Below are positions 4,914-46,586 of a stretch of 64,000 bases of DNA, piece by piece. Each line of letters begins with the position of its first letter. The first letter of the stretch is position 1. The position numbers were made by a program, and so were the translations under genes. This DNA comes from an uncultured Acidobacteriota bacterium (GTDB lineage: Bacteria > Acidobacteriota > UBA6911 > RPQK01 > JAPXNP01), in the NCBI GenBank assembly GCA_963777605.1, contig CAVZRV010000007.1:416001-480000 (forward strand), read 5' to 3'. The notes beneath the pieces were generated by a model. That model saw only the letters and a list, made by a program, of their open reading frames with translations, was not told where the DNA came from and did no database searches.

Positions 4914-5972
4914 CTAAAATGTCTCGATTTGTTCGACCAGCTGTTCGAGAGAGGCCATTCCATCGACCGGCGTTGCCAGTTCACGAATCCTCAGGAGCGG
5001 TTCGGAGCCGGCGGTTCTCGCCTCCAGGCTCTCCAAAACTCTTTTCTGCTCTCTAACCACGGCAGTTCCCCATGCCAGGGTCCGTTGATCACCGGGTTCA
5101 GTCGGGCTCAGCCCTTCCGGGGGCTCGGGCCAACAGCGATTGACGATGGTCCGAGGTGCTGGATAGTGTCGGGCCTGCAGCTCCCGTTCAAAGAATTCCA
5201 CGTCTCGTTCGGCTTTGTCCGGAATCGTGACAATGAAGAACCGAGCCGTCTCCGGGTCTCTCAACATGGCCGCTGTTCGCCGGGCACGTTTCGCGTAACC
5301 CTCGGCGATTGAGCGGAATAGCCCGTAAAAGTCGAGTACCTGTCCCACGACCCCGACTCCGACCAGCTCTTCCAGGCGGGCGTAGAGATCAAGAGAGCGC
5401 CTGCCCATCGCTCCAAAAGGAGATGCCGCCCAGACTCGGTAGGTGGCGCTGGCGATCTTGACCACCGGGAAAGAAACCAGGTCAGCGAAATACTCCGGCT
5501 TGTCGAGAAACTCAAAAGCGTGACGACTGGGAGCAGTATCGATCACCACGGCATCGTATCCACGGTTTAACGCCTGGTCGAGGTACTCCAGTGCCATCAA
5601 CTCCTGCATCCCCGACAGCGAAGTGATCAGCATCCGGTAAATCCGATGATCGAGGATCGACCGAACCTGGCGTGGATTGCCATAGGTCCGGACAGCGGTC
5701 TCGAGAGTGTGCTCAATGTCGAGCAAAGCAGCCCACAACTCCCCGGCAAATGAATCGGGGAGAGCAACCCGGTGCTCACCTCCGCGATTGTCCAACCCGA
5801 GCAACCCCTTCAGCCTTCTGGCAGGATCAATCGTCAAAACCAGGGTCTTGTGCCCGGAATGAGCGTACTTCATGGCGAGGACGCTGGAAACCGTGGTCTT
5901 GCCAACCCCGCCCGTCCCCACCAGAACCGCAATCCGAGTTTTCCTTCCACTTCGGCCTGTCGCCTCGTTCAT
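4914..5972 (-). CDS. ArsA/Get3-family ATPase (second subunit of pair)
   Basis: GTGGVGKTT P-loop, TIDPARRL, SGMQELMALE, VIDTAPSRHAFEFLD. Confidence 0.88.
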   Translation of the reverse strand: MNEATGRSGRKTRIAVLVGTGGVGKTTVSSVLAMKYAHSGHKTLVLTIDPARRLKGLLGLDNRGGEHRVALPDSFAGELWAALLDIEHTLETAVRTYGNPRQVRSILDHRIYRMLITSLSGMQELMALEYLDQALNRGYDAVVIDTAPSRHAFEFLDKPEYFADLVSFPVVKIASATYRVWAASPFGAMGRRSLDLYARLEELVGVGVVGQVLDFYGLFRSIAEGYAKRARRTAAMLRDPETARFFIVTIPDKAERDVEFFERELQARHYPAPRTIVNRCWPEPPEGLSPTEPGDQRTLAWGTAVVREQKRVLESLEARTAGSEPLLRIRELATPVDGMASLEQLVEQIETF

Positions 5973-6910
5973 GGGCTCTCACCCCGTGACTTTCGGCCCC
6001 CAATCATGCCGAGAAGGCCGGCGCCGGAGAGCTCCTCGGCCAGCCCTCCCAGAAATGCGAGGTCGGCAAACTGCCGCGGCCTGCGCTCCAGAGCCAGGAC
6101 CGGACAGGAGAGCGCCTCCCGGATCCGACTGTGCTGCGCACGTTCTGCCGCAACCTGGGATCGGGCAAACCGGCCCCACTCGCCAAGACCACGATAGTCC
6201 GGAAGAGCCTCCGATCCGGCCACAGGGCCCTCGTTCGCCAGGCACACCAATTCCGGCGACACCAGGTTGCAGATCGCCACGCCTGCGTTCATGCCCAACT
6301 CCTCGAGTCCCTGTTCCAACTCGAGGGTTTCGTCAACCGACATTTCCTCAGGAACGCAGACCGGGACAACAAAGGGTGACGCTCGCTCGATAAAATCACG
6401 AATCTGCCTGCCCTGGCTGGCAAGCGGTCCCGAGAAAAACTGTTCGAAATTCCGGGCTACTCGAAGGGTCTGCAGAAAGTGGCCGGAAGCGGGTGCGTCC
6501 CAGACAATCACATCGTATGACTGAACTCAATCCGGTTGGGCCGTTCCGATATCGGTCAGTCTCCAAAGGAACGCGAATTCCTTCAACCCAGGAACAACCT
6601 CGATGAAATTCGTGTAAATCCGGCTCTTGACGAGAAATTCGGCAATCCCAGAGGGCCTGATCCGGGACCTAACCATCCCATCCAGGACGTTCTTTGGGTC
6701 AAGGTGAACCACGAAGAGTCTTTTAGCAGCCTCCGGTTCACTATCCTCGATCCCTTCCAGGTTGATGGCGAGGGCCAGTTCCGACAGCGGGTGAGAAGAC
6801 ACGACCAGCGTTCGGCTGCCCCGGCGGCTCAACGCCAGCCCCGTCGCCACCGACAGAGTGGATTTCCCGACTCCACCCTTCCCACAAAAGACAATCAGGG
6901 ACACTGCCAC
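5969..6910 (-). pseudogene. ArsA/Get3-family ATPase (first subunit), interrupted by one in-frame TGA at 6529-6527
   Basis: ORFs 6527-6910 (GKGGVGKS, VPGLKEF) and 5969-6511 (WDAPASGH, VCVPEEMSVDET) share a frame: ...QPD-TGA-VQSYDVIVWDAP. Confidence 0.8.
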
Positions 6911-6962
6911 AATCGACTACCAGTCAAGCAGAGGTTCAATTCGGGGATTCCAATCGGACCGG

Positions 6963-8459
6963 CTACCGTCCTCGCGCCACAGAGAAAACCAACGCCACAC
7001 CACACAACAGCGAGGCGGCGGCCAGCAGAGTCCCAAGACCGGAACCCTCTGCAGAAAATGCCCCTTGGAGCGTGGCCAATGAGGCAAGCAGCAGTACCCC
7101 GCCGAACCAGGATCGCCTGGATTGGCTCTGGTTGGGCGAAGACGTTGTGGTCGACACCGAAACGGAAAGGTCATTTTCCCTCAACTGCTCGACAAACGAA
7201 CTCACCTGGCGCACTACCCCCATCATCAACAGACCGCTCCCGACCGCCCACTCGCGGGCTTTCTCAATGCTCATTGTTTGGCTCACCCGCAACTTCACGA
7301 GCCGGGACAGAACCGTCGCAACACCCACAACAAACTGGTCCACTTTACGGCTTGCCATCTTGGGGCCGAGAAGCACCAGTTCGCGTTGAAAAAAATCAAG
7401 GAAGAATGGAACCCGAACTCGACTGCCGGCGAGGGCCTTCCAGAAATCCACCAACTTCTCGACAGAATCGGGGAATCGCCCTTCTCGGTCCATCTCGAAC
7501 CGGAGCCCGGAGAGTTCTCTCCAGATTTCCGACTCGGGGATCACCACCTCCTCATTCCGGGTCATGCGTACCAGCATCCGCATGGCACGCCCGGAGTCTT
7601 CCGCAATTGATGAAGCCACGTACTGGATAAGGGGCTGGTAATGCTGGATTGGAAGAGACTCCATGAAGGGCCAGACGCGATATCCGAACTTCCCCTCCCC
7701 ACAGGCCCGCATCTCGTCGAATGAGTCATCCACCGCGATGCAGGAAAGAATCAGGATCTGCTCAACCACTGCCTCCACCCATCGAGTAGAATCACTCTCC
7801 CCATCCGCTCCGGGTTGGCGCACGGGTTGCCCTTCGGTCAGCGAGTAGGCGAGGATGTTCGAGCGCTGCAAATCGGGGATCAGTTGGGGGATTTCTGTCA
7901 CGCATCCCGGTGGTGCCTCCTGGAGTGTCTCCAGCATCCGCCGCTTGCGTCCCAGATCAGCATGAAGGTCGAGCCACTTGTGGAAGGAGTGAAGGACATC
8001 CGGCTCCAGGATGCGCGACTCCGGGAACCCTTCCAACTCGGAAACGCCCGCTTCGAAATCCTTCCAGGCCGATTGATCTACGCCCGCGTCCGGCACAGCC
8101 ACCTCAAGAATCACGATCCGGCGACCGAAAAGAGCGCGAAAAGACCTGGTGAAATACGACCGGGTCAGTTCCTCGACTTCGAGGGCTTCAACAGGCAGAT
8201 CGAGCGGCCCATCCGGCCCGAAATAGGGGGCCGTCACCTGTTCGAGTTCATCCAGGTAGGGATTGGGCAAGAAATCCGCACGACCGGATAGAAAAACGGC
8301 AAACGCCTGGAAGTAGCCGCCCAGTTCCTCGCATGCGGAGCGAAATCCGGTCGCCCGGGAAAGAGTGCTACCGGCCAGAAGGGGCCCCCGACCCCAGCCC
8401 CGAGACCGGGCCAGCCCGTAGTCCTGCCAAACCGTTGAAGGGTTTCGTCTGGGATTCAC
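6963..8459 (-). CDS. AarF/UbiB (ABC1) kinase-like protein, catalytic motifs degenerate (pseudokinase)
   Basis: FRSACEELGG..FLSGRADFLP..YLDELEQV matches the UbiB N-terminus, and two C-terminal TM helices are present. KxGQ, VAVK, HADxHxxN and DFG are not recognisable. Confidence 0.7.
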   Translation of the reverse strand: MNPRRNPSTVWQDYGLARSRGWGRGPLLAGSTLSRATGFRSACEELGGYFQAFAVFLSGRADFLPNPYLDELEQVTAPYFGPDGPLDLPVEALEVEELTRSYFTRSFRALFGRRIVILEVAVPDAGVDQSAWKDFEAGVSELEGFPESRILEPDVLHSFHKWLDLHADLGRKRRMLETLQEAPPGCVTEIPQLIPDLQRSNILAYSLTEGQPVRQPGADGESDSTRWVEAVVEQILILSCIAVDDSFDEMRACGEGKFGYRVWPFMESLPIQHYQPLIQYVASSIAEDSGRAMRMLVRMTRNEEVVIPESEIWRELSGLRFEMDREGRFPDSVEKLVDFWKALAGSRVRVPFFLDFFQRELVLLGPKMASRKVDQFVVGVATVLSRLVKLRVSQTMSIEKAREWAVGSGLLMMGVVRQVSSFVEQLRENDLSVSVSTTTSSPNQSQSRRSWFGGVLLLASLATLQGAFSAEGSGLGTLLAAASLLCGVALVFSVARGR

Positions 8460-8544
8460 AATACTCCCGCCGCCACGCCAACCTGTTTCACAGCCGAAAC
8501 CCCTCTGTCTGCCGGCCCTGCCGACCCTTCAAGAACCGGAAAAA

Positions 8545-8976
8545 TCAGGAGGCCTTGGCCCTCGCTTTTCGCTCTGAACCACCCAGCGCCTCGGACGCCG
8601 GCTGTGGCGCTTCCCCGGAGCTCTCGCTCCCACCGTCCATCCAGCTCATGACTGAGTCCGACGTCCGTTTCACCATGTCCGCCGTATTTTTCACCATTTC
8701 ACGAGGGTCGGCAATGGTGGCCCCGACTCCCGAGAAAGCACGATGAACGGTGTCTTCGGAAACCCGCGTTACCGTGTCGAGCGTTTCTCGCTTACTCTGG
8801 TCGACATGGTTCATCACGGCGTCTGAAAAAGCGTCCATAGTCTGGCGCATCCGCTCGAGCGGAGCAGTCATATCTTCACCCGAACCCACCGATGTTACCG
8901 CTCCCTGGACCTGCTCGAGGCCGAACAGCGTCATCGCGGTCGAAAATCGCATCATGGAAACAAGAAACTTGTCCAC
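8545..8976 (-). CDS. Small helical hypothetical protein (phasin-like composition)
   Basis: GGAGG RBS before GTG 8976. Met/Ala/Ser/Thr-rich amphipathic sequence, lying between the two UbiB genes. Confidence 0.7.
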   Translation of the reverse strand: MDKFLVSMMRFSTAMTLFGLEQVQGAVTSVGSGEDMTAPLERMRQTMDAFSDAVMNHVDQSKRETLDTVTRVSEDTVHRAFSGVGATIADPREMVKNTADMVKRTSDSVMSWMDGGSESSGEAPQPASEALGGSERKARAKAS

Positions 8977-9148
8977 AGAAACCTCCCTCTCTAAAATATT
9001 TGGTTGAAACTGGCTCAATGAGTACCCGCACTTCGGGTCCTTGAGGATTTGGAGTTAGAATACCTCTCAGATGGTCCCTTTGTCCAGTATAAGGTCTGTA
9101 ATTGCACTCTGATCCGGCAATCTTACAGAGTTGTTGCCTGGCCCGCCG

Positions 9149-10795
9149 CTAATGGGTCAGTCTCCAGAGAATGCTCAGCACCCAAGCCGTAAAGACACCC
9201 AAGAGTCCGAAACAAACGAGTGCCGGCACTGCCGTCGGAGCCGCCGCGAGCGTCCCCCAGTTGAAGGCGGCACCTCCAAGGATTGCGAGCCAGGCGACAA
9301 CCGCCCAGAAGGCCTTGTGCCCGGTCTGATCGGCTGGTCCCGAGTCGACCAATCGGACGCGCAACGGCAATTCGCTCCGCTCCAGCATGTCGAGCGATCG
9401 GAGCATGCTCCCCGGCCCCATCTGAAGCCACCCGGCCAGATCCGCCATCGCGGGTAGAGAAGCCCGGTTCGACAACATTTTTCGCTGGGCCTCTTCCATG
9501 ATGTACTCCTCGCAGAGCTCCTTCAGGTGAGGGCCGTAGTCGAGCCCCGGAGCGAGACGGGAGACCAGGCCGTCTGCCAGAAACAACGAGCGGATGTACT
9601 TGATCATTTCCCGCCGAGGAAGGATCCCGAAGGAACGGCAGAGCGTCAACAAGTCGATCATAAGGATCGTCAATGAGCGGCCAAACTGGGGGCGGCCCGT
9701 TATCGCGGGTTCCCGGTACCAGCGTGGTGAGAGTTTCTCCAACTCCCTTCGAAAGCCCTCAGGGTCGGCGTGGTCGGTCAATTCACAGACTGCCATGAAT
9801 GACCTGAAAATCTCGTCGTTCTGACCTCTCACGTACCCGAGGGTCATTTGGATGATTTTCCGCCGGGCTTCCGAGGTGAGGTGCCCAACAATGCCGAAAT
9901 CCACATAGCCGACCTTATTTTCCGGCAGAATCAAAAGATTGGCGGGATGTAAATCGGCGTGAAAAACACCAAATCGCAGCGCGTCACTAACAAAGTTCCG
10001 AATAACGTTGGACACAAAGACCGGAGGGTCAAACCCGATCTTCCCCAGGACCCCGATCGAGTCTTCCTGGGTCTCGTCGCGGATTCGCATGTACTCCCGG
10101 ACGCTCCTCCCTTCCAGGAAATCCATCGTCAGAATCCGTTCCGTGGTCAACTCCCATTGGACACAAGGCACCTGTTCGGTCGGGGTCTCGCGCGAGTTCC
10201 GCTCCAGGAGGCGAGCGTAGTGCGCCTCGGTACGGTAGTCGAGTTCGTCCTGGATCCAGTCGTTGAACTCCTTGGCCGGATCACGAAGGAAATAGAGGGT
10301 CCGAATTCTCAGCAAGAAAATGAGCTTGATGAAGTACTTCATCAAAACCGCGTCGCGGGTAAAGGTATCCCGTATCCCCGGTCGCTGGACTTTGACCGCG
10401 ACCTTGTGTCCATCAGGCAGAACGGCCCGGTGAACCTGCCCTATTGAGGCTGCCGCGATCGGCACGAAGTCGAATTCCGTGAAGATTTCCTCGGGATTCG
10501 CCTTCAGGTCCTCCCTGAATATCCGCCGGACCTCCTCCTCACGAAACGGGGGCACCCGGTCGAGGAGATCGAGAAGGGCATCACAATAGGCCGTCGGCAG
10601 GGTGTCCACCTGGAGTGAGAGGATCTGGCCGAACTTGAGGAAGCTGCCGGAGATCTCTTCGAGCGCGATGCGCAGCCGGACTGGACCGCTCATCCCTGGC
10701 TTTCCGGTGAGGCGAGCCCAGAGGGCACCCACCAGGTGAGAGACTACGATCCTCGCGACCTCCAGAGCTCGGGCCAGATAATTTACGAAAGCCAT
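9149..10795 (-). CDS. AarF/UbiB (ABC1) family kinase
   Basis: SFLKFGQ, AAASIGQVH, VAVKVQRP, ELDY, FHADLHPAN, VDFG; C-terminal TM helices. Confidence 0.92.
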   Translation of the reverse strand: MAFVNYLARALEVARIVVSHLVGALWARLTGKPGMSGPVRLRIALEEISGSFLKFGQILSLQVDTLPTAYCDALLDLLDRVPPFREEEVRRIFREDLKANPEEIFTEFDFVPIAAASIGQVHRAVLPDGHKVAVKVQRPGIRDTFTRDAVLMKYFIKLIFLLRIRTLYFLRDPAKEFNDWIQDELDYRTEAHYARLLERNSRETPTEQVPCVQWELTTERILTMDFLEGRSVREYMRIRDETQEDSIGVLGKIGFDPPVFVSNVIRNFVSDALRFGVFHADLHPANLLILPENKVGYVDFGIVGHLTSEARRKIIQMTLGYVRGQNDEIFRSFMAVCELTDHADPEGFRRELEKLSPRWYREPAITGRPQFGRSLTILMIDLLTLCRSFGILPRREMIKYIRSLFLADGLVSRLAPGLDYGPHLKELCEEYIMEEAQRKMLSNRASLPAMADLAGWLQMGPGSMLRSLDMLERSELPLRVRLVDSGPADQTGHKAFWAVVAWLAILGGAAFNWGTLAAAPTAVPALVCFGLLGVFTAWVLSILWRLTH

Positions 10796-12505
10796 CTACT
10801 TCTGCCGGGCGACAAAATGCGCCCCGTTTTCCTGATATGACCCGAATATCTTGCCAAAGAAGACATGTTTCCGCCTAGCCAGCATGTCGTTGATGCTGGT
10901 CTGCAGGACATCCCTGACATGAGCGGAGAACTCTTTGACTTTTCGGCGGCTGGAGGCGTCTTCCCGCGTAAGTGGGGAAACCGGAATCGGTTCGAGATAA
11001 CGAATATGCCACTTCGTGGGCAGGGGAAGCGGAACCAGAGGAAAAGTCGGAGTAATCGGGATAAACGGCCATCCGGTCAAGCGCATCAGTGAGGAGATGT
11101 GCATCTTGCCGAGAATGGGGAAGATCTCGACATGGCCCACAACTGCGGCAGGAATGACTGGGATCTGATGCTCGATCGCCATTTTCGCGAAGGCGTCTCT
11201 CCCGAACTGGCCCAACTCGTAGGCCCCCTTGTACATGCGAAAGGCTCCCGAAATTCCCTCCGGGAAAATCCCCACCAGTTCGCCTCGCTCGACGAGACGG
11301 CCGGCATTCTGCTGACTCGCGACCACTCCTCCCTGCTTGATCAGGAAATCGGAGAGGAACGGGAACTTGAACAGTGACGGGATCACCAGGAACCGGATCT
11401 GGCGTCCCCGCGCCTCGAAGACGAGTGATCGATGCACCACCCCGTCGAAGGGCATGAACCCGCGGTGATTGGGTGCAATGATCGCGCTTCCCGATTTGGG
11501 AATGTTCTCGAGCCCTTCGCTCTCCACTCGCCAGTAGACGTTGCGCAGAAATCGAAACCAGAAATCCCACTGCTTCAGGTAGGCGGGATCCAGGCCGAAT
11601 TCATCGACCGCATGGTCTACCTGCCCCCGCTTCAAGCGGCCCGAACGCTCAAGCAGGGAGCCGAGAGCGTCGGCACTGGACTTCCTGGGCTCGAAAGACA
11701 ACTCTCTTCGCGCTCGCTCCGACGAGACGGTGACATTGTACCGAAGTTGGTCGGCGGAAACGTCCGGATGCGCCCCGAGGCCAACCATCGCCGCGGTCTT
11801 CCGGAACCCCCGCTGGATCACGTGGGGTATGGGAAGTCGCACCGGGACACTGGCCCGCAGCGTCCTCCGGAAGTCAACACAGCCATCCCCGGAAACATTG
11901 AAGACTCCGGTCGCTCGGGAATTGACTGCTGCCACAATCGCACGAGCGGCATCATCAAGATCGACAAACTGAACTCGCGGGTCATAGCCGGTCGCCGGCA
12001 TGCAGGCCTTCCCCACAAACATCCGGGTAAGGAAGTCGCCTTCAGCCGGGTCGGAAATGGGCGAAAAACGGAGAATGACGCAACTCAGCGAGTCCTGCTC
12101 TCCGGACCCTAGCGCCTCTTCCGCCTTCAGCCAGCGCTGTTCGATCGAACCTTCTTCAAGCAGGGAGACCCTGTCCTCCTCCATCAGTCCGTAGTTCTTG
12201 AAGCTGAACCCGTAAGCGGCGACATGGCTTCTGAGGACAACCCGCTCAATTCCGGCTGGTCTGGCCTTCGCGAGCAGGGACCGGATCCATTGCACGTCGG
12301 CCTCACACTGGCCTGGATTGCGATCGGACAGGTCGAAAGGGAAGACAATCAGTGTCCGAACCGAACCGTCACCCAAATCCTCCGGCTCGTTTTCCCGTGG
12401 CAGGCGCCTGATGGTGTGTCCGGCAGCTGAAAGCAGCGCCACCGTTTTCTCAGCCAGTTCACCCTGATGTCCGGCAACAAGAATCTCAGATTGCTCCAAT
12501 GCCAC
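10796..12505 (-). CDS. Fusion: NAD-dependent epimerase/extended-SDR-like domain + PlsC-like lysophospholipid acyltransferase
   Basis: N-half: QFVDLDDAARA, GVFNVSGDG. C-half: DEFGLD, GLENIP, PNHRGFMPFD, GIFPEG, LPLPTKW. GTG 12505 with GGAGG RBS (ORF extends to 12535). Confidence 0.85.
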   Translation of the reverse strand: MALEQSEILVAGHQGELAEKTVALLSAAGHTIRRLPRENEPEDLGDGSVRTLIVFPFDLSDRNPGQCEADVQWIRSLLAKARPAGIERVVLRSHVAAYGFSFKNYGLMEEDRVSLLEEGSIEQRWLKAEEALGSGEQDSLSCVILRFSPISDPAEGDFLTRMFVGKACMPATGYDPRVQFVDLDDAARAIVAAVNSRATGVFNVSGDGCVDFRRTLRASVPVRLPIPHVIQRGFRKTAAMVGLGAHPDVSADQLRYNVTVSSERARRELSFEPRKSSADALGSLLERSGRLKRGQVDHAVDEFGLDPAYLKQWDFWFRFLRNVYWRVESEGLENIPKSGSAIIAPNHRGFMPFDGVVHRSLVFEARGRQIRFLVIPSLFKFPFLSDFLIKQGGVVASQQNAGRLVERGELVGIFPEGISGAFRMYKGAYELGQFGRDAFAKMAIEHQIPVIPAAVVGHVEIFPILGKMHISSLMRLTGWPFIPITPTFPLVPLPLPTKWHIRYLEPIPVSPLTREDASSRRKVKEFSAHVRDVLQTSINDMLARRKHVFFGKIFGSYQENGAHFVARQK

Positions 12506-12542
12506 GATTCCGGCCCTCCCTGTACAGGAATTCAATGGAAGC

Positions 12543-13166
12543 TCACGGCCTCGGTAAAACTCCCTGCAGGAACAGGTCGGACATCCCGGCGATCAGCCGG
12601 GCGTCACCGACCTTCTCAATTTCTTTCCCCCCAAGCATCTCGAGAGCGAGAAGCGAGAAAATCAGGGCAGACAGAAAGAAGGCGGCCGCGGCCTCCACGT
12701 CGATGTCCTCCCGGATCTCACCGCGGCTCTGCCGCTCCTTAAGGAATTCGGTGAACAATGTCCGCCCCCGCATGATGAAAGTCGAGTAGAAGACAACGCC
12801 GAATTCGGGATTGTACATGGCCTCGCTGAGACAGGTTCGAAGGAAGCCAATATGCGTCCGGCACTCATCCAGGAGAATCCGCGCCAGCACCCCCAATTCA
12901 TCTCCGATGGTCTCTCCCGGGAATCGGAGTTCGGGTTCGGCCACTGAACCCGCTATCAGGTAGAGCTCCCGCTCCAGCAGGGACTGCATGAGCCGACTGG
13001 CACCTCCAAAATGGAGGTAAATGCGAGCCGGGCTGACACCCGACCGGCGGGCCACCCGCTCGACTACGTCCACCTGTAGGCCTTCTTCGCCAAGCAGGTG
13101 GAACGTTGCGTCCAGCACACTGTTGATCTCGTCGAGCGTCAGCGCGTCGCCCGGCTTCTCGGTCAT
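12543..13166 (-). CDS. TetR/AcrR family transcriptional regulator
   Basis: N-terminal HTH VLDATFHLLGEEG..VERVARRSGVSPARIYLHFG; RGEIREDIDVEAAA in the C-domain. Confidence 0.88.
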   Translation of the reverse strand: MTEKPGDALTLDEINSVLDATFHLLGEEGLQVDVVERVARRSGVSPARIYLHFGGASRLMQSLLERELYLIAGSVAEPELRFPGETIGDELGVLARILLDECRTHIGFLRTCLSEAMYNPEFGVVFYSTFIMRGRTLFTEFLKERQSRGEIREDIDVEAAAAFFLSALIFSLLALEMLGGKEIEKVGDARLIAGMSDLFLQGVLPRP

Positions 13167-14719
13167 CGTTGTTCTCCCTCATGACTGGTGAGGTTCGGAA
13201 AGTCCAACCGCGCCTCTCGGGCCGCCTCAGTGGTCTCGTCTTCAATGTCCTGCTTCTTGAGAATCATCTCCGCCACCCGCTGGGCGGAAACGATCACAGG
13301 AGTAATGCCTCCTCCAGGTCGCGTCCAGTGGCCAACCAGGTAGAGGTTTTCAATCGGCGTCCGGTTGGCCGGGCGGAGTTCCCCCAACTGGTCCGGGGAC
13401 ATTTCCCAACCCAGCATCGCCCCTCTGTGGTTGAGCGTGTACCGGTATGAAGTGTGGGCCGATGCACTCATGTGTACGACGATCTTCTCGTCGAGTCCGG
13501 GAATCAGCCGGCGCAATTGGCCCAGGATGTAGTCTTCGGTAGAGGCCTTGTGGGCACCCCAGTCCTGAATCTGGTCATAGTTGGCCGTTCCCCATTTCTG
13601 TACGATGAGTATGTCGTGTCCTTCCGGGGCGAGGCTGGGGTCGAAAGACGTGGTGAAAAAGACCTTAAAGAAGGTGTTCTGGAGGTCCGCCGGATTCCAC
13701 GATCTCCAGTAATAGCCTTCGATATCCTCCTTGTGTTCGTGAGAAAGGCCTTTTAGCCCCATGTGAAGGAGATAGCAGGGGAACGATGGACGCATCGACT
13801 TGAGGCCGTCAATCACCTCGGAACCGCAGAGCTCACCGCCCACCAGTTTCTCGTAGGTGAGGAGCACGTCCGCATTCGACACGATCACGGGTGCGCGAAA
13901 CTCGACTTGCTGGGGCCGCCTCTTCGACCGGGTTGTGGCCACTACCCCAACAGCGCGATCACCCTCGACAAGTATCTTCTCAACGTTGGTGTAAAGCAGC
14001 GTCTCCCCGCCCCGGCGCCGAAGAGCCTCTCCGAGATCGTCGGCGAAAGCCTGGGAACTGCCCATCGGATAATAGTTCCCGAGGAAATAAGACAGGCGCA
14101 GCATCGAGTCGAACAGGAACGAAGTATGCCTGGGAAGAGAACCCCAGTGGGAGTGGTCCGCCATCAGGTTCGATTTCAGCCGCGGATCACTGAAGTGCTC
14201 ATCGAGTTTCTGGCCGAGTGTGAAGTCGCGGTACTTTTCGGCAACCGGGTGGGCGATCTCCTTGAAATAGTAAAGGAGCCCATAGAGGTAGGCTTCCCGA
14301 ACCTCCCCAAAGAACTGGTCGATGTTGTGCGCCTCTTCGGGATACCGACCCTTGAGCTGCTTCATGTAGTCGGACAGGTCGGCCGGGACTACAAATGTGT
14401 CTCCGTCGGGGAAGTGGAATTTGTCAACCGGATCCATCTTGTGCCACTCGGTCGGAATCCCCAGTTTCTTGAGGAGCTTTCCGGTGAGCGTAGTCGGGTT
14501 GCCCAGGAGCGGGTAGAAGTGAGTGGCCGAGTCGAACAGGAAGCCCTTGCGCCGAAAACTGCTGCAGTATCCCCCCAGGACGTAATGCTGCTCAATGACG
14601 AGGACCTTCATCCCGGCATCGGCCAGGAGATTTGCGCAAAAGAGCCCGCCGACTCCAGAACCGATCACTATCACATCGTAATACTTCGAATATTCTCGAC
14701 CCAGGATCTGGTAGGTCAC
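13163..14719 (-). CDS. Phytoene desaturase (CrtI)/retinol saturase-like FAD oxidoreductase
   Basis: DVIVIGSGVGG, EQHYVLGGYCSSFRRKGFLFD, TPIENLYLVGHWTRPGGG. Confidence 0.85.
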   Translation of the reverse strand: MTYQILGREYSKYYDVIVIGSGVGGLFCANLLADAGMKVLVIEQHYVLGGYCSSFRRKGFLFDSATHFYPLLGNPTTLTGKLLKKLGIPTEWHKMDPVDKFHFPDGDTFVVPADLSDYMKQLKGRYPEEAHNIDQFFGEVREAYLYGLLYYFKEIAHPVAEKYRDFTLGQKLDEHFSDPRLKSNLMADHSHWGSLPRHTSFLFDSMLRLSYFLGNYYPMGSSQAFADDLGEALRRRGGETLLYTNVEKILVEGDRAVGVVATTRSKRRPQQVEFRAPVIVSNADVLLTYEKLVGGELCGSEVIDGLKSMRPSFPCYLLHMGLKGLSHEHKEDIEGYYWRSWNPADLQNTFFKVFFTTSFDPSLAPEGHDILIVQKWGTANYDQIQDWGAHKASTEDYILGQLRRLIPGLDEKIVVHMSASAHTSYRYTLNHRGAMLGWEMSPDQLGELRPANRTPIENLYLVGHWTRPGGGITPVIVSAQRVAEMILKKQDIEDETTEAAREARLDFPNLTSHEGEQR

Positions 14720-15456
14720 ACCATTCCTCCGTCAACCGGAAGAACCTGGCCGGTGATGTAGCCCGCATCCTCACTGGCCAGGAACCGGACCACTCCGGCT
14801 ACCTGGCGGGGAGTCCCAGGGAATCCCACCGGAATCTGGGCAAACAGTTTCTTTCTGGACGACTCAGGGATGTCGTCCAGCATCTCGGTCTCGATAAACC
14901 CGGGAGCGACGGCATTGACCCTGACGCCGAACCGGGCCACTTCCCTCGACAGCACCTTGGTCAACGCAATCACGCCTCCCTTTGAGGCCGCGTAATTGGC
15001 CTGTCCGGCGAGGCCCAGGATCCCGCTCACACTGACGACGTTGACGATCGTACCGGCCTGACGCTTGATCATGTCCATCACCACACAGCGGCAGAAGTTG
15101 AAGGTCCCGGTCAGGTTCGTCGCCACCACGTCGTTCCAGTTTTCCGGTGACATGCGGTAGACCGGCTCATCCTTCTTGATCCCGGCGTTGTTTACGAGCA
15201 GATCGATAGGGCCGAGCCGGTCGCGGACCTCCTGGACCACGGCTTCGCTTCGCCCGAAATCCCGGACGTCGGCCTGCACTGCCAGAACGCGAAACCCGTT
15301 CTCTTCCAGGGACGCTACCAGTTCCTCGGCCGCGTCCTTTCGGCCCAGGTAGGTAAAGGCAACAGACCAGCCCGCGTTAGCCAAGTCCTCAACGATGGCC
15401 CGACCAATTCCGCGACTGCCCCCGGTGACCAACGCGACTCCAGCTGAATTTTCCAT
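14716..15456 (-). CDS. fabG: 3-oxoacyl-ACP reductase (SDR)
   Basis: TGGSRGIG, NNAGI, GQANYAASK, VAPGFIET, YITGQVLPVDGG. ATG 15456 overlaps the upstream stop (TAATG). Confidence 0.85.
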   Translation of the reverse strand: MENSAGVALVTGGSRGIGRAIVEDLANAGWSVAFTYLGRKDAAEELVASLEENGFRVLAVQADVRDFGRSEAVVQEVRDRLGPIDLLVNNAGIKKDEPVYRMSPENWNDVVATNLTGTFNFCRCVVMDMIKRQAGTIVNVVSVSGILGLAGQANYAASKGGVIALTKVLSREVARFGVRVNAVAPGFIETEMLDDIPESSRKKLFAQIPVGFPGTPRQVAGVVRFLASEDAGYITGQVLPVDGGMV

Positions 15457-16688
15457 TACTTTTCCCCCGGCCTGTTGCGTCCGTACGTTTCGTGAGCTCG
15501 CGTAAACTCGCCCGATGCAATTGCCCCTGCCATGGAGATCTCTCCCCCCAGGAGCGTTCCCGCTATTACCTCGGCAAGCCGCACCGCCTTGCCGGTCCCA
15601 TAACAATCCATCATCTCCAGGCATTCCCGCTGAGTACCCAGTGCAGTACCGCCACCGACGGTTGCAATGGTCAGGGCCGGAAGTGTGACGCTAACGTGAA
15701 TCCCGCCCTCGACCGGTTCGAAACTGGTGATCCCGCAGGCGCTGTTCACCACGTTGGCCACGTCCTGGCCGGTGGCAATGAAAATGGCCGTCAGGCCGTT
15801 CGCGAACTGCCCATTGTAGCCAACGGCGTTGGCGGCAAGGTGCCCCACCAGCGTCGAGTGCCACACCTGATAGAGCTGAACAGCGGAGCAGCCCAGGTAA
15901 CTCTTGAGAATCCTGTCATCGAGGAAGGCCCCGGCAGTCACCCACTTCCCTTTCCCCCGGGACATGAGATAGCCGGACGGGCGTTTCTCGGAACTCATCC
16001 CACTGAATACGTAATACTGAGGGACCGGAAAATTGTCGGCAGCCCAGCGACAGGCGGCGTCCGTCGCCTTGACGATCATGTTCATGCCCTGGGCATCCCC
16101 GGTTGAGAAACGGAAGTTGACGATCACCTGGCGGGCAATCTGATAGGTTTCGCACCCGAGCAGCCGACCGTGCCGGGTCGTCGCCTCAGCCTCCCTCTTG
16201 AGTTCGTGGAAATGCTCTTTCAGCCAGCCCGGGAAACGAGCGGCATCGTGGATCGAGTCAAAGAAGAAGGACGGGTTGGTCTGGTTCTGGTCGTCAACAC
16301 AGGCGGCTTCAACCCCGCCGGAACGAGTCAATGCCACCATCCCCCGTTCGTAGGATCGAACCAGCGCACCTTCGGTCGTCGCCAGCGGCACGTAAAAAGT
16401 GCCGTCGGCGTGTAACCCCCGAATGCGAAGAGGACCGGCAATGCCGGTCGGGATCTGGGAGACACCGATCGGGTTCTCGATGTTCCCTCGCCACTGGAGG
16501 GAGTCCTCCGAGAACGACCCGACGTGCCGGGATGAGGTTCCGGTCCGCTGCTCGAGCCACTGCCGGCGACGGGTCACCCGCTCGGCATCATAGCCCTGCT
16601 CCTTCATTCTCGGTATCAAGTCTGTGGTTGCCGAAGTGCTTTCTTGTGAGGACATTGTCGTCACACCCATCCGATCGATGGCTTCCAT
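15456..16688 (-). CDS. Class I HMG-CoA reductase homologue (substrate-site variant)
   Basis: NIENPIG, PLATTEGALV, TGDAQGMNM, ATGQDVANV, TVGGGT, GEIS and C-terminal His (RAH). True start may be ATG 16655. Confidence 0.88.
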   Translation of the reverse strand: MEAIDRMGVTTMSSQESTSATTDLIPRMKEQGYDAERVTRRRQWLEQRTGTSSRHVGSFSEDSLQWRGNIENPIGVSQIPTGIAGPLRIRGLHADGTFYVPLATTEGALVRSYERGMVALTRSGGVEAACVDDQNQTNPSFFFDSIHDAARFPGWLKEHFHELKREAEATTRHGRLLGCETYQIARQVIVNFRFSTGDAQGMNMIVKATDAACRWAADNFPVPQYYVFSGMSSEKRPSGYLMSRGKGKWVTAGAFLDDRILKSYLGCSAVQLYQVWHSTLVGHLAANAVGYNGQFANGLTAIFIATGQDVANVVNSACGITSFEPVEGGIHVSVTLPALTIATVGGGTALGTQRECLEMMDCYGTGKAVRLAEVIAGTLLGGEISMAGAIASGEFTRAHETYGRNRPGEK

Positions 16689-16747: not shown

Positions 16748-16776
16748 ATGATACTTGGTGGAATCATCTAAATCAA
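16748..16776 (-). promoter_or_regulatory. Putative sigma70 promoter of the HMGR-fabG-crtI-tetR operon
   Basis: TTGATT-N17-TATCAT on the minus strand. The -35 overlaps palindrome AATCAACATTGATT (16771-16784). Confidence 0.5.
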
Positions 16777-16825
16777 CATTGATTGCCATGATTTGTTACT
16801 TCTGCTCGCGTCGGAACCTTTGTAC

Positions 16826-17749
16826 ATGAAAGAGCCCGTACCAGTTTGGAAGAATGCACTTCGTAAAGCCAACACAATCCGCAGCGTTTCCTCGCCTGCG
16901 GACCGCCTCAACCAGTCCCAGTACGTGGAACGAATCACCCGAATCCAGGGTGCCGCAGCCGACAGCGGCGATCCTTTTTTCACGACCCGCTCGTTCTGGC
17001 AGATGGAGAAGGTCTCGGCCGAGTTCTTCAAGAATCCTCCCCAAGGAGGGACTTTGGCGGATTCCCGCATACCGCTGGCCGCTCGCCCGATCGTCCACTG
17101 CGGGATGGGAATTGGCGCGGTCGAGGCGGTGGGCTTTGAGCTGGCTCGGCTGCAGCCACGAGTTGAGGGGTTCACTTCCCCCGACTACCGTCCATTCTGC
17201 ACCGAGTCACTCGGGGCCATGCTCGGGGTCTACGCTCCCGGGCCGTTCTTCGCTATTGCGTCGGGCATGCGCCGTATCGGGCTCCTTCCGATGGCGAACC
17301 TGACCCGCCCCGAACCGGCGTCCTATTTGGAGCACTTCGACCTCGTGGGGCGGCGCCTGCTTTCCCATGGGTTCGGTCGAATTCTCTTCTTCCGCAATCT
17401 CTCCGTTTCGGCGGCGATTCGAATCGCCCGGAACGAGCCTCACTTCGACCGGGGCTCCTGCGTCCGTGGGATCGCCTTTGCCATGGCGATGGTCAATTGC
17501 GCAGATGTCCGGCGGGTGATCTCCGACCGGTTTGAATGGGGCGCTGACTGGATCGACCATGCGTTCGATCAGGGACTCGTTTACGCTCTCGTTTTCTGGG
17601 AGTGGATGTCACCCGGCTTCCTGGAACGCTTCCCGGGCCACGGTGAACTCGCGCGACGTCGAAGATTGGCTGCTCGTCGCGAAATCGAGGCTGCACTTGA
17701 TCGCGGGCACCCGGCAGTGTTCGACCTGGAGTTCGAACTCGATTTCTGA
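16826..17749 (+). CDS. Hypothetical helical-repeat protein (weak DUF1702-like resemblance)
   Basis: Fills the gap between flanking genes; recurring Gly-containing helices HCGMGIG, ESLGAMLG, HGFGRILFF, RGIAFA, DQGLVYA. Confidence 0.65.
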   Translation: MKEPVPVWKNALRKANTIRSVSSPADRLNQSQYVERITRIQGAAADSGDPFFTTRSFWQMEKVSAEFFKNPPQGGTLADSRIPLAARPIVHCGMGIGAVEAVGFELARLQPRVEGFTSPDYRPFCTESLGAMLGVYAPGPFFAIASGMRRIGLLPMANLTRPEPASYLEHFDLVGRRLLSHGFGRILFFRNLSVSAAIRIARNEPHFDRGSCVRGIAFAMAMVNCADVRRVISDRFEWGADWIDHAFDQGLVYALVFWEWMSPGFLERFPGHGELARRRRLAARREIEAALDRGHPAVFDLEFELDF

Positions 17750-18730
17750 TTATCGGGCAGGGCCATTCGCCCATAATGGCGCCATTTCCTCCAGCAGGTT
17801 CTGATGAACCCGCCCGTGGAGCCTCAACATTACCGCATCCATACGGTCGTGAAAGCGCCGGCTCAAACGGATGCTTCGCAAGGTAAGGAGATCGAGAAGT
17901 TCAACCACCGAATAGACAGGATCGAACCCTCGCAAATCCAAAATCTTCTCGCTCCGCGGGGCCACGATGAAAGCCAGCCTGATCTCCAGGGTTCGGTCCG
18001 CCATCAATGCGAAGTGAAACTGCTTGATTGCGCTGCGGAAGTGTCCCGGCCCAAAACCGAAGATGTTGGGTTCGGGAGCGAGCGGCAGGAAGGCATACCC
18101 AAACGCCACTTCGGCCACGACCACCTCCCCGGCTGGGATCAGCGGTTGAGAGAGTGCCGGAATCACGGTGATCAATGCCGCCTCACGGACCCGTCGGCTC
18201 ATGGGGCGAGCGACCGGGCGCATCATCGGGATCGCTCTCACGAAATCATGAATGTCAACCCGAAGCAGCTTCCACTCGAAACCGCCGAGGCCAAAATCAG
18301 CCTCCCCAGAAGGCGGGGATTCCGGCGCATCGGCGCCGGTTCGCCGGGCCAGGACCGGCGCATAACTGAATCCTCCCCGGTCTCCGTCCTTCCGCTTCCA
18401 ACTGGAGTACCGGGCGAAGGTAGTGGGGAGTTCCTCGACAAACCGGGCCGCTGCGTTTGAGTCAATACCCATCTCAAAGCGGGCCCGTTGCAGACACCCC
18501 ATCACGCTGCAGCCGTCGCCGAGAAAATCGTAAAAGCAGTCCATGGCCACAAGCGAGCCACCCGGCGGCCTCAGGGGAAAGGTTCTGGAAAGGACTCTGG
18601 CACGCTGTTGCTCCCACCAACCGAGCAGCGCATTCCCGGTATCAATGGCCTGCCGGTTTGCCGGCAAAAGTACATTCGGCGGGAACAAATGGGACTGGGA
18701 ATCCGCGGATGGTTGGGACGGCGAGGGCAA
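17750..18730 (-). CDS. Hypothetical protein
   Basis: 326-aa ORF with globular, aromatic-rich composition (FGYAFLP, FGFGPGHF); stop abuts the convergent gene. Confidence 0.7.
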   Translation of the reverse strand: MPSPSQPSADSQSHLFPPNVLLPANRQAIDTGNALLGWWEQQRARVLSRTFPLRPPGGSLVAMDCFYDFLGDGCSVMGCLQRARFEMGIDSNAAARFVEELPTTFARYSSWKRKDGDRGGFSYAPVLARRTGADAPESPPSGEADFGLGGFEWKLLRVDIHDFVRAIPMMRPVARPMSRRVREAALITVIPALSQPLIPAGEVVVAEVAFGYAFLPLAPEPNIFGFGPGHFRSAIKQFHFALMADRTLEIRLAFIVAPRSEKILDLRGFDPVYSVVELLDLLTLRSIRLSRRFHDRMDAVMLRLHGRVHQNLLEEMAPLWANGPAR

Positions 18731-23140: not shown

Positions 23141-24583
23141 CTACCAATCCGGATCCAGGTTGTCCTGCCCAAGGTTGATTCTCAGGCCGAGGCCGCCGAG
23201 GTGGGCAAAGTTGTCGTAGACCCCGTTTGTGAATACATCGGCATTTGCGGCGACGTTGGTCTCGCGGACCATGAATTTCATCGCCTGGTAGAAGATGCTG
23301 AATTCCATGTTCCCCCGCGTCATCGACGCTCCCGCGGTAAAACTGTGCCGGCTGCTGTCGGGAAACAGCGGCCCGGTACTCTTGTCGGGAACCGGGCTGT
23401 GGTCGAACATGTAGCCGCCACGGACGTCCATCCCCCACTTGAAGGGGTGTTCGTAACCCGCGTTGATCTGGTAGGAGTTGTTGAAGTCAAACTCGAGTCG
23501 CAGTTCCTCCGGCGTCGCGACATCCACGGTCTGACTGAAATTCACCGGAACGCTCTTGAACCGATGATAGTCCATATATTGGAAATCAAACGCCGCGGTT
23601 CCGCCGAACACTTCCTCCTTGGCCACGGCCACCTTGTATGACGCCGGTGTCGTGAAGGAGCCCTTGATCGGCTGATCGGGAAAAAGGTCGGGAATCGTGT
23701 CGGCTCCAACGAAAGGCTCCAGCGTGTAACCGGTCGTAAAAGCAAAGGTGGCCCTTCCGTCAAGGTGATGGGTCACCGCGCTTCGGTACATCGCCCCGAA
23801 GTTCATCTTGCGCTCAGGGTCACGGTGGAGAAAACCAAGGTTGAACCCAAGACTCTGGCTCGTTCCGGCCAGCCGGGAGCGCCCCTCGGGAAGGAGGCGC
23901 GCAATCGCCGGGCCGGCCAGTTCGGGATCTTCGCCTGGGAAAATCAGGTTGGACAACTCCTTCCCGAACACGATCCCGTCGTCGAGCGGGTTCAGGATGC
24001 TCTGCTCGAGCATCAGGTGAGTGTGGACCAATGCCACCCCGAGGGCTACCGCCGTGTTGGGTCTGACCCGGTACGCTACCGTCGGTTGAAACCAGATTGA
24101 CTCAAGTCGCGCCCGGTCGCCCGCGTAGCGGGCCACGAACTTGGTCTCCTGCGGGTCACTGTCCTTGAAGCTGGTCCAGTTAGCCGAAAGACCGAACGGC
24201 GAGAAGACTCCGAAACCGAAGGTCAGTTTCTCGGAGAGGTCCTTGGTCATGTACATGCTCGCCACTGGTATCAGCTTCGGCGCCACCGACCCGTTGAATC
24301 CCTTTTGTGGGACGTACTGGCCGGCCGGCGTGTCGAAAGGAGTGAAGCGGAAGAGACCGACGACTCCCAGGGAGTCCATTTCCATCCGCAAGCCCTTCTG
24401 GAAGGCAATACCGGCGGGATTGTAGAAAAGGGCGGAACCGTCATCGGCAATCGCCGCAAAGGCACCTCCCATCCCCATCGCCCTGACACCAAGCTCATAG
24501 ATTGAAAATGCCGACGCATCCAACCGTCCTGAGACTGCAAAAAGGGAGACGCAAACTAGAAGAACGAGCTTTTTCGCGGTCAT
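23141..24583 (-). CDS. fadL: OmpP1/FadL family outer-membrane hydrophobic-compound channel
   Basis: Signal peptide, AFSIYELGVRAMGMGGA, DDGSALFYNPAG (NPA motif), PFGL, RGGYMFDHSPVP, PDSSR. Confidence 0.88.
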   Translation of the reverse strand: MTAKKLVLLVCVSLFAVSGRLDASAFSIYELGVRAMGMGGAFAAIADDGSALFYNPAGIAFQKGLRMEMDSLGVVGLFRFTPFDTPAGQYVPQKGFNGSVAPKLIPVASMYMTKDLSEKLTFGFGVFSPFGLSANWTSFKDSDPQETKFVARYAGDRARLESIWFQPTVAYRVRPNTAVALGVALVHTHLMLEQSILNPLDDGIVFGKELSNLIFPGEDPELAGPAIARLLPEGRSRLAGTSQSLGFNLGFLHRDPERKMNFGAMYRSAVTHHLDGRATFAFTTGYTLEPFVGADTIPDLFPDQPIKGSFTTPASYKVAVAKEEVFGGTAAFDFQYMDYHRFKSVPVNFSQTVDVATPEELRLEFDFNNSYQINAGYEHPFKWGMDVRGGYMFDHSPVPDKSTGPLFPDSSRHSFTAGASMTRGNMEFSIFYQAMKFMVRETNVAANADVFTNGVYDNFAHLGGLGLRINLGQDNLDPDW

Positions 24584-30088: not shown

Positions 30089-31039
30089 TTACGGAGACGG
30101 GTATTCCAGTTGGGCCGTCTTGGGGTGAAACCGGGCCAGGAAGTGCTGTGAGCAGGCTCCACAGAAACAGGAGAGTTCCAGGTAACGTCCTCCAGCCTTG
30201 AGGTCGCTGCGATCAAGAATTTTCACCTGCTTCGCATGACACTGAGAACACTCGAGCAGCGAAGTCGGGATCTTGATTTCCGACCGCGTTTTCACCCCGC
30301 GCGGGCGGAAATCCATACCCGCCTTGTGAATCTCGGAGCGAGCGTCGGGGCCGGAAATGTGGACAACTTCACACATCTCCATGAGCCGCGAGTGAAGCCG
30401 CGTCCCGATCCGCTCTTCCAGGTTTTGATCCCCTCCGCGACTCGGTCGCTCTCCCTTCTTCGAGGCCGCCAAAAGGTGCCAGTTGGTCGTCAGAATGGTG
30501 TGCTTCCGGTTGGTATAGCGATAGTTAATCACCATCCTGGTCGTTTCGCGGACCCAATCCGTCGGCCGTCCGGTCCCCAGGTCGTCCCAGATAAGAAGGT
30601 CCGCCTCCATCAGGGGCATCATGACTTCTCGTTCGGTATCCGGGGAATCCGGCCCGTAGGAGTACTGGAGGCGGCGAAGCAGTTCGGCCTCATCAACGAA
30701 CCGTCCGTTGACACCGCGTTCGACCACCAGACTCTTCAGAATAGCCACAGCAAGATGAGTTTTGCCGACGCCACAGTCGCCTACGAACAGCAACCCACGT
30801 TCGACATCCGGAAAACCGTCAACGAAATCGATCGAGCGGGTCAGGGCAGCCTGCTGGGACGGGTGATGCACGGAGTAGAGTTCGAATCCCCGATCAAGAT
30901 AGCGGGGAGGAATCTGGGCCAGTTCAACCCGGCGCGACTTCGAGGCTGAATCTCGACAGTCGGGACAGGGGACTACCGCCTCTGCCGATCCCTTTTGTTG
31001 CAGAATCCAGCCGGTGTCCCGGCACCTCGAGCAAGCCAT
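30089..31039 (-). CDS. DnaC/IstB-like AAA+ ATPase with N- and C-terminal Zn motifs
   Basis: CSRCRDTGW..CPDC, IPPRY, GDCGVGKTHLA, LIWDDLG, TTN, SRLMEMC; extra CSQC..CGAC tail. Confidence 0.85.
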   Translation of the reverse strand: MACSRCRDTGWILQQKGSAEAVVPCPDCRDSASKSRRVELAQIPPRYLDRGFELYSVHHPSQQAALTRSIDFVDGFPDVERGLLFVGDCGVGKTHLAVAILKSLVVERGVNGRFVDEAELLRRLQYSYGPDSPDTEREVMMPLMEADLLIWDDLGTGRPTDWVRETTRMVINYRYTNRKHTILTTNWHLLAASKKGERPSRGGDQNLEERIGTRLHSRLMEMCEVVHISGPDARSEIHKAGMDFRPRGVKTRSEIKIPTSLLECSQCHAKQVKILDRSDLKAGGRYLELSCFCGACSQHFLARFHPKTAQLEYPSP

Positions 31040-31249
31040 CGAGTGCTCAAGATAGCACGGAGGCAGAAAAATCCGAAAGGTGCGGGGAACCGATTTGGTT
31101 TGAATCTCGCAACGGGCTGACTTAGAATGGTTGCGGAGTCTCTGCTGGCATCGGATCGGCACGATTGCTCCGCATCGGCGGTCCACCGTCTCGGTTGGCT
31201 CGTCAATCCACCTCGAATCTTCAAACGTCTAAGCGTTAAGGATCCTGAA

Positions 31250-43521: not shown

Positions 43522-43575
43522 GCTCAGCGGAGAACTTCCGACGGAAGCTCGCCGTCAGAACACTTGAGAATTGTC

Positions 43576-46249: not shown

Positions 46250-46290
46250 GCCTCTGGTTCAAGACCGGCAGCTTGAGTACCATAGGTGGC

Positions 46291-46554: not shown

Positions 46555-46586
46555 CTCGAAGAGATATTCCCTGGTGAGACCAACCA

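Follow-up and report, generated by a model that had tools for sequence, protein, structure and literature searches.

A predicted acyl-thioester reductase of HMG-CoA reductase descent, with a remodelled substrate pocket, in an uncultured acidobacterium

FcrA is a homologue of the class I HMG-CoA (3-hydroxy-3-methylglutaryl-CoA) reductases (HMGRs). As described in the main text of the paper that introduced it (ISME J 2025, PMC11948995), the purified enzyme from 'Ca. Promineifilum breve' (Pb-FcrA, CUS01882.1) is NADPH-dependent and converts acyl-CoA of at least 14 carbons to fatty alcohol. HMG-CoA is not a substrate for its reduction, and simvastatin does not inhibit it. This report presents a related gene at 15456..16688 on the minus strand of a 64,000-nucleotide stretch (here called the window) of the genome of an uncultured Acidobacteriota bacterium (GenBank assembly GCA_963777605.1, contig CAVZRV010000007.1, positions 416,001 to 480,000). 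The gene product has the HMGR fold and the HMGR catalytic residues. On the most probable reading (roughly 60%) it descends from HMGR but reduces acyl thioesters with NAD(P)H instead of HMG-CoA, and would process or release the chain of a ketosynthase cassette as an aldehyde or alcohol. An earlier note on this DNA had already proposed a repurposed acyl-thioester reductase with a non-HMG substrate; that proposal is supported by the retained catalytic residues, by the changes at residues 735 and 862 (human numbering), by a family score below the HMGR cut-off, and by a genome that has methylerythritol phosphate (MEP) pathway genes and neither HMG-CoA synthase nor mevalonate kinase above cut-off.

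Several features of FcrA define the terms of the comparison (PMC11948995, main text). The catalytic tetrad of the HMGRs is conserved, Leu862 is replaced by a bulky residue in all FcrA, and the lysine that forms a salt bridge with HMG is replaced by small residues (this lysine is printed as 'Lys795', which by its spacing from K691 is K735). Replacement of Ser684 by Glu is named for Natronomonas pharaonis FcrA only, an FcrA that was modelled. Some FcrA proteins begin with an alkyl-carrier (Lad) domain or an acyl carrier protein (ACP), and some fcrA genes lie beside PlsC-like genes, for which ether-lipid roles were proposed. The same text counts many bacterial "class I HMGRs" as FcrA and states that the genomes in question lack the mevalonate pathway. 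Literature searches found FcrA in this one paper only and returned no paper on the clade described here or on its genomic context; nothing was found that joins HMGR homologues to Acidobacteria and phytoene desaturase, or PilZ to HMGR. None of the terms 'Acidobacteri', 'PilZ', 'Arg590', 'ketoacyl', and 'phytoene' occurs in the main text of that paper, and its supplements may list acidobacterial sequences. Enzymes of this kind were thus already published in 2025; what is new is a rare clade (8 of 301 Acidobacteriota genomes) that has a pocket signature of its own and lies in a conserved, uncharacterised pathway context.

Catalytic site, HMG pocket, and isoprenoid genes

The open reading frame (ORF) has the coordinates given in the earlier note and is read from an ATG at 16688 to a TAA at 15458-15456, encoding 410 residues. 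In a Pfam scan the protein matches PF00368 (HMG-CoA_red) at 1.1e-101, with positions 2-368 of the 368-position model covered, the full-length class I HMGR fold. Only 24-37 residues precede this core, and the scan finds no second Pfam domain. The best solved relative in HMMER searches is the HMGR of Methanothermococcus thermolithotrophicus (6hr7, 312 bits), and the score against human HMGR (1dq8) is 180 bits; a canonical-type archaeal representative (P0188) reaches 404 bits against 6hr7 and 308 bits against the human chain. Databases label the homologues of the protein "hydroxymethylglutaryl-CoA reductase (NADPH)". The score of the protein against TIGR00533, the NCBIfam equivalog for class I HMGR, is 321.3 bits, below the cut-off of 441.8.

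Residues were assigned by HMMER alignment to 6hr7, Arabidopsis HMG1, and human 1dq8, with the human numbering anchored on the residue numbers of the FcrA paper, and were counted over the query and its 120 closest homologues (n = 121, 61-92% identity). The catalytic tetrad is complete: E106 (human E559, in TTEG), K235 (K691), D309 (D767, in GQD), and the C-terminal H399 (H866) align with the three HMGR chains, and each of the four is present in 121/121 sequences. The retention of these residues, and the readings of four altered motifs discussed below, had been noticed by eye in the earlier note, and the alignments bear them out.

The residues that surround the HMG group in canonical enzymes are altered in a consistent manner. 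R590 is replaced by T137 in the query, where MTR(A/G)P reads NQTNP, and across the 121 sequences this position is I (98), T (21), M (1), or V (1), and never Arg. Within the SEKR loop the DKK motif reads EKR: D690 has become E234 and K692 has become R236 on either side of the retained K691, and both substitutions (D690E and K692R) occur in 121/121. Two further changes were absent from the list in the earlier note. K735 corresponds to S278 in the HMMER alignment, as counted along the human chain, and the position is S in 117 sequences, T in 3, and A in 1, with Lys in none; L862 corresponds to F395, and Phe is found in all 121. The Lys of an EGRGK motif had been considered as a candidate for K735 and was rejected, for the human-chain count identifies it as K704 and places the true K735 opposite Ser278. 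Position 684 can be aligned in two ways, to Ser229 with a one-residue gap (HMMER) or to Phe228 without a gap (MAFFT), and is Glu under neither.

Because the counts are nearly uniform across the 121 sequences, this residue pattern is conserved remodelling and not random decay. Two of the altered motifs are variable positions and are not diagnostic. DAMGMN reads DAQGMN in the query, and the M655 position, which is Q in 120 sequences and H in one, varies over the whole superfamily; NAHxxN reads NGQFAN, with H752 replaced by Q294 and N755 retained, and position 752 is Q in 84, H in 34, and M in 3 of the sequences. The changes at R590, D690, and K692 are best read as marks of this clade rather than of a loss of HMG use in general, since loci with the FcrA signature retain all three residues. 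The earlier observation of an altered HMG pocket is confirmed and gains the changes at K735 and L862. Loss of the two cationic residues that hold HMG (K735 and R590) and the bulky Phe at L862 argue for a non-HMG acyl group as the probable substrate, and the retained tetrad implies that hydride would still be transferred to a thioester carbonyl.

It is extremely unlikely that the protein forms mevalonate as a true HMG-CoA reductase that has only diverged in sequence. The full-length fold, the intact tetrad, and the database name of the homologues agree with such a role; the loss of K735 and R590, the Phe at L862, the TIGR00533 score below cut-off, and the different appearance of canonical-signature homologues in other Acidobacteriota (loci L132 and L133) speak against it, as does the isoprenoid gene content of the genome. 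The earlier note had proposed to check the genome for mevalonate versus MEP genes. In the assembly (6.7 Mb, 53 contigs, 96.7% complete), own-genome profile searches place DXR, IspG, and IspH over their cut-offs; HMG-CoA synthase was not found (TIGR01835, best 27.8 bits), nor was a mevalonate kinase found over the cut-off (TIGR00549, best 81 bits against a cut-off of 163). Pfam scans of the window also find neither gene, as the earlier note had stated, and an own-genome search shows a single PF00368 gene and no second HMGR. In this organism MEP genes are present and a mevalonate pathway is not visible, a combination that supports the prediction of a non-HMG acyl-thioester reductase. Taken at face value, the database name would wrongly imply a mevalonate step in an organism with MEP genes. 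Among the sequences examined for DXS, a candidate at G000:C30:87836-89677 was rejected as a transketolase (NF004559, 895 bits), and a weak match at G000:C31:159997-161147 holds in-frame stops.

Residue signatures and phylogeny of the homologues

A search of 301 Acidobacteriota genomes with the query gave 47 with a match at E <= 1e-30, and 30 loci were fetched and grouped. Eight of these (L104-L111) belong to the clade of the query: they lack R590, have Glu at 690 and Arg or His at 692, have replaced K735 in 7/8 (Lys is kept in L111), and carry Phe at 862 in 7/8 (Leu in L109). Twenty loci (L112-L131) are of the FcrA type, with R590, Glu at 684, Val, Ile, or Ala at 735, and Trp at 862, and 14 of the 20 encode 129-170 extra N-terminal residues. 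Two (L132 and L133) have the canonical R590, K735, and L862. This full canonical signature also occurs in the f30 and f69 genomes, and the Acidobacteriota families concerned may have a true HMG-CoA reductase.

Loci from other phyla extend the second group. Seventy loci at 40-46% identity to the query (L030-L099) have the FcrA-type signature: R590 is present in 70/70, D690 in 69/70, and K692 in 70/70, K735 is lost in 69/70, and position 862 is Trp in 61 and Phe in 9. A reading of these loci as canonical HMGRs is ruled out by the loss of K735, by the Trp or Phe at 862, and by the presence of PF25653 in the proteins scanned. This domain, which we infer to be the Lad domain, lies at the N-terminus of all eight FcrA-type (Trp862) proteins that were scanned and is absent from the query. 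Glu at 684 is found in 20/20 of the acidobacterial FcrA-type loci, yet in only 20/70 of the loci from other phyla. The signatures thus separate three kinds of protein that pass as "class I HMGR": a canonical kind (R590, K735, and L862), an FcrA-type kind (R590, no K735, Trp862, and often PF25653), and the clade of the query (no R590, no K735, Phe862, Glu690, and Arg692).

The alignment and tree with class I HMGRs that the earlier note had suggested leave the residue losses in place and set the query apart from the canonical rows. Two trees were built, one with FastTree (177 rows) and one with quick IQ-TREE under LG+G4 (63 rows), both drawn rooted on the rows with canonical signature; three rows have unusual composition. 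In the IQ-TREE analysis a branch with a Shimodaira-Hasegawa-like approximate likelihood ratio (SH-aLRT) support of 100 separates the rows of canonical signature from the remainder. The acidobacterial clade is monophyletic (100), has P0122 as its sister (94), and falls within a larger clade (98) of homologues without R590 that includes proteins fused to PilZ, receiver, and hotdog domains. The Trp862 group forms a clade of its own (99), separate from that of the query, in a tree that holds neither a class II outgroup nor an assayed FcrA.

The gene could be a plain FcrA-type enzyme with a fatty-alcohol or ether-lipid role, although this is improbable. The loss of K735 and the bulky residue at 862 fit the description of FcrA in the main text of PMC11948995, and against it the query belongs to a clade separate from the Trp862, Glu684, and PF25653 genes, which are themselves present in Acidobacteriota (20 of the 30 fetched loci). 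The gene neighbourhood, which bears on the same alternative from both sides, is taken up in the next section.

Domain fusions are frequent among the wider homologues. Of 26 HMGR-like proteins scanned (P0123-P0154), 16 have an N-terminal PilZ domain, one a receiver domain (P0133), and two a hotdog or thioesterase-like domain (P0125 and P0129). The PilZ fusions suggest an acyl reduction that may be under the control of cyclic di-GMP. Two proteins (P0139 and P0143), both outside the clade without R590 in the tree, are fused to AMP-binding and carrier domains, and this architecture shows, at the level of sequence, that some family members would act on carrier-bound thioesters. A separate observation concerns the acidobacterial FcrA-type loci: in 10 of the 20 (L113, L117-L119, L121, L123, L124, L128, L130, and L131) the reductase adjoins an ABC1/UbiB-family kinase that is 31-33% identical to the kinase encoded at 9149-10795 of the window. 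The family consequently recurs beside two different clades of HMGR-derived reductases.

Gene neighbourhood, ketosynthase cassette, and proposed reaction

The conserved partner of the reductase is a gene for a CrtI-like flavoenzyme. It lies at most one gene downstream of the reductase in 15 of the 17 other copies for which downstream DNA is available (9/10 and 6/7 copies from two locus sets that share no locus). In the window this gene (13163..14719, minus strand) encodes a CrtI-family FAD oxidoreductase of 518 residues (Amino_oxidase, 6.6e-26), which scores 180 bits against TIGR02734 (cut-off 238) and has CrtI (4dgk, 84 bits) as its best solved relative. Between the two genes lies a FabG-like ketoreductase of the short-chain dehydrogenase/reductase (SDR) family (14716..15459, minus strand, 247 residues; adh_short, 1e-62). 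It falls just short of the TIGR01830 cut-off (293.8 against 297.75 bits) and exceeds that of NF009466 (254.6 against 222 bits). Its start codon and the stop codon of the reductase share bases in the sequence TAATG, and its own stop overlaps the CrtI-like gene by four bases. The coupling to fabG on which the earlier note had remarked is thus real in the window, but a FabG-like gene stands between reductase and CrtI-like gene only in the closest relatives (L020, L021, and L105-L107), and the CrtI-like gene is the conserved partner.

A second conserved association is with a pair of ketosynthases (KS), one of them inactive. Such a pair lies directly upstream of the reductase in L022, L027, L029, L109, L110, and L111 (in the loci of high guanine-plus-cytosine content, L026, L027, and L029, neighbours were taken from a scan of all ORFs of at least 150 residues). 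In the genome under study a cassette of ACP, KS, and inactive KS (locus L103) is found at 637-640 kb of contig C7, the contig that also carries the reductase. Its ACP, at 11550-11810 of L103, matches PF00550. The active KS retains its Cys motif (PTACAAG) and His motifs; in the partner protein the Cys motif is replaced by SAGLASG and the His motifs are missing as well. The pair upstream of the reductase in L022 is of this same kind.

The distribution of the two elements across genomes is similar. The reductase clade occurs in 8/301 Acidobacteriota genomes and an orthologue of the inactive KS (E <= 1e-60) in 7/301, and six of these seven are among the eight reductase carriers. In the two remaining carriers a more divergent inactive KS copy lies directly upstream of the reductase. 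Only one genome has the cassette without the reductase, and its assembly is 83% complete and in 940 contigs. The three other carriers from the same family have the orthologous inactive KS at 55-63% identity; in the sole family member that lacks the reductase, and in one genome from the same order, nothing closer than a FabF-like gene at about 30% is present.

These associations suggest how the predicted reductase might work, with a chemistry proposed by analogy to HMGR and FcrA. The substrate would be a fatty-acid- or polyketide-like chain built on the dedicated ACP by the active and inactive KS pair. Hydride transfer to the thioester carbonyl would give a thiohemiacetal, from which the thiol would leave to release an aldehyde, and a second reduction could yield the alcohol, as in HMGR and FcrA. 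The CrtI-like flavoenzyme may then modify the product. In the lineage studied here the FabG-like ketoreductase might also act, and an acyltransferase could esterify the product. A more specific version of this scheme is tentative: the enzyme would be dedicated to acyl-ACP rather than acyl-CoA and would release the chain of the KS pair reductively as an aldehyde or alcohol, which the CrtI-like enzyme then desaturates, isomerises, or oxidises. If true, it would represent a new type II synthase route by which soil Acidobacteria make unusual lipids derived from an alcohol or aldehyde.

The direction of the reaction allows a further alternative. The HMGR reaction is reversible, and sequence alone does not fix the direction in which an enzyme of this family runs. 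The protein might oxidise an alcohol or aldehyde with CoA to an acyl-CoA, much as the catabolic HMGR of Pseudomonas mevalonii acts on mevalonate. The biosynthetic context (ACP, KS pair, FabG-like ketoreductase, and acyltransferase) argues against oxidation, as does the only assayed relative, FcrA, which reduces with NADPH (PMC11948995, main text), and an oxidative role is accordingly judged very unlikely.

On the minus strand of the window a run of six overlapping or abutting genes encodes the reductase, the FabG-like protein, the CrtI-like protein, a TetR-family regulator, an SDR-acyltransferase fusion, and an ABC1/UbiB kinase. The regulator (12543..13166, 207 residues, assigned by Pfam) overlaps the stop of the CrtI-like gene by four bases and is conserved in L020 and L021. 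The fusion protein (10796..12535, 579 residues) consists of an N-terminal SDR/epimerase-like region, with weak matches to AvaA7 and HpnA at residues 78-287 in its extended-SDR part, and a C-terminal PlsC/GNPAT-type acyltransferase (Acyltransferase, 6.8e-15, residues 336-465); the reductase also has homologues of the fusion nearby in L020, L022 (two copies), and L023. The kinase gene (9149..10795, 548 residues; ABC1, 9.4e-65) begins directly after the acyltransferase gene and has homologues in L020 and L023.

The fusion protein speaks for a plain FcrA-type role. An SDR region joined to a PlsC-type acyltransferase is the architecture described for MXAN_1675 of Myxococcus xanthus, and the fusion might act like that fatty-acyl reductase (FAR)- and GNPAT-type protein. 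An ether-lipid role has been proposed where fcrA adjoins a PlsC-like gene (PMC11948995, main text). Carriers of the reductase clade include metagenome-assembled genomes of Pyrinomonadaceae and Bryobacteraceae, lineages whose cultured members make ether lipids. On the other side, the acyltransferase gene is near the reductase in some loci only, the reductase is tied to a dedicated set of KS, inactive KS, and ACP rather than to general fatty-acid metabolism, and wax ester synthase/diacylglycerol acyltransferase (WS/DGAT) was not found in the genome.

Several points weigh against an acyl-thioester reductase that serves the KS cassette. The cassette of this genome is 205 kb from the reductase and not adjacent to it. 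Two copies show no CrtI-like partner, with none within 1.5 kb in L109 and none within 3.3 kb of the second copy in L029. The carriers are akin (4/8 belong to one family), so the co-occurrence counts overstate independence. MEP is indicated by three of the four markers tested, with no DXS (TIGR00204) over cut-off in the genome. The tree rows comprise no class II outgroup and no assayed FcrA, and the "FcrA-type" rows were assigned by signature. Finally, the transfer of function from FcrA is indirect: the query belongs to a separate clade, has Phe rather than Trp at 862 and Ser or Phe rather than Glu at 684, and lacks PF25653.

The remaining features of the locus are of unassigned role or lie further away. 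A promoter-like site (TTGATT-17 nt-TATCAT) is found at 16748..16776 on the minus strand, about 60 nt upstream of the reductase ATG; it is a hint only, for the motif search gave 6 sites against a shuffle mean of 2.8, which is weak evidence. Upstream of the reductase are two genes without a Pfam or NCBIfam match (16793-17749, plus strand, 318 residues; 17750-18730, minus strand, 326 residues), and homologues adjoin the reductase in L020, L105, L106, and L107. Downstream of the six genes, two minus-strand ORFs of 157 and 498 residues (6963..9018), also without a Pfam or NCBIfam match, have the same order in L020. At 23141-24583 (minus strand), at a distance of 6.5 kb from the operon, a FadL/TodX-family outer-membrane transporter for hydrophobic compounds is encoded. 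Another possible set of lipid genes lies at 43564-48700 (plus strand), with an amine-oxidase-fold FAD protein (PRK07208-like), a 436-residue ORF without a match, a ligase of the long-chain acyl-CoA type, and a short ORF that resembles lipid A acyltransferases. The window also holds the mobile-element genes of a DDE transposase (50-1429, plus strand) and an IstB-like ATPase (30089-31186, minus strand).

Other loci of the clade differ in their surroundings. In L026 (6735-9964) and L027 (15246-18598), the cluster of KS, reductase, and CrtI-like genes contains or adjoins a gene for an RPE65/carotenoid-oxygenase-family protein (PF03055, about 1e-90) and one for a halogenase-like flavoprotein, and LuxR-type regulators are found in L027 and L029. 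These three kinds of neighbour give hints of a polyene-type specialised metabolite. One Thermoanaerobaculia contig (L029) has two clade copies of the reductase (5496-6923 and 12379-13620), each after a ketosynthase, and another genome (G266) has two clade copies among its four HMGR-like matches.

Comparison with described systems

The anammox bacteria provide the nearest counterpart to the ketosynthase module. Their candidate "ladderane" cluster, kuste3603-3608, comprises an ACP, FabZ, FabF, a non-canonical FabF, a CrtI-like protein, and a radical SAM protein (PMC4790861). When kuste3607 was assayed for lycopene formation it could not stand in for CrtI, and the CrtI-like proteins make no lycopene (PMC4790861). 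By description, the acidobacterial module shares the ACP, the active and non-canonical KS, and the CrtI-like flavoenzyme. It differs in its HMGR-like gene, which is not listed for the anammox cluster ("HMG" has 0 occurrences in PMC4790861), and neither FabZ nor radical SAM was found among the ORFs scanned around L103, L022, L026, L027, and L029. If the acyl-ACP reductase scheme is true, soil Acidobacteria would offer a tractable aerobic model for the core of KS, non-canonical KS, and CrtI-like protein in the anammox cluster. A product, if found, would give a function to the module of KS pair and CrtI-like protein, which is uncharacterised in anammox bacteria, and could bear on the alcohol- or ether-derived lipids of Acidobacteria.

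The ether-lipid genes of Myxococcus xanthus comprise ElbD and, together with the AGPS MXAN_1676, MXAN_1675, which is described as combining an SDR-like (FAR-type) region with a PlsC/GNPAT-type acyltransferase (PMC9131029). The window resembles this system in pairing a predicted acyl reductase function with a PlsC/GNPAT-type acyltransferase, and the layout of the 579-residue fusion is alike by description. The myxobacterial reductase, however, is a FAR-type SDR domain, whereas that of the window has the HMGR fold. ElbB had been considered as a CrtI-like protein in the same system and was dropped, for it is HAD-like (PMC9131029).

Canonical class I HMGRs (6HR7 and 1DQ8) and the query have the same fold and catalytic residues, and in both a GQD motif and a C-terminal helix that carries the His are present. 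In contrast to the query, R590, K735, and L862 are intact in these enzymes, and the genome of the query lacks the mevalonate partners.

FcrA is closer. Its main-text description (PMC11948995) and the query agree in the class I HMGR fold with its tetrad, in a small residue at K735 and a bulky one at L862, in a genome without the mevalonate pathway, and in a PlsC-type acyltransferase that is sometimes nearby. The FcrA-type loci retain R590, D690, and K692, whereas the query has Thr, Glu, and Arg there, and the query is tied to a cassette of KS, inactive KS, and ACP and to a CrtI-like gene, not to WS/DGAT. The clade would thus represent a second remodelling of the HMGR pocket beside FcrA, with a different conserved pathway context.

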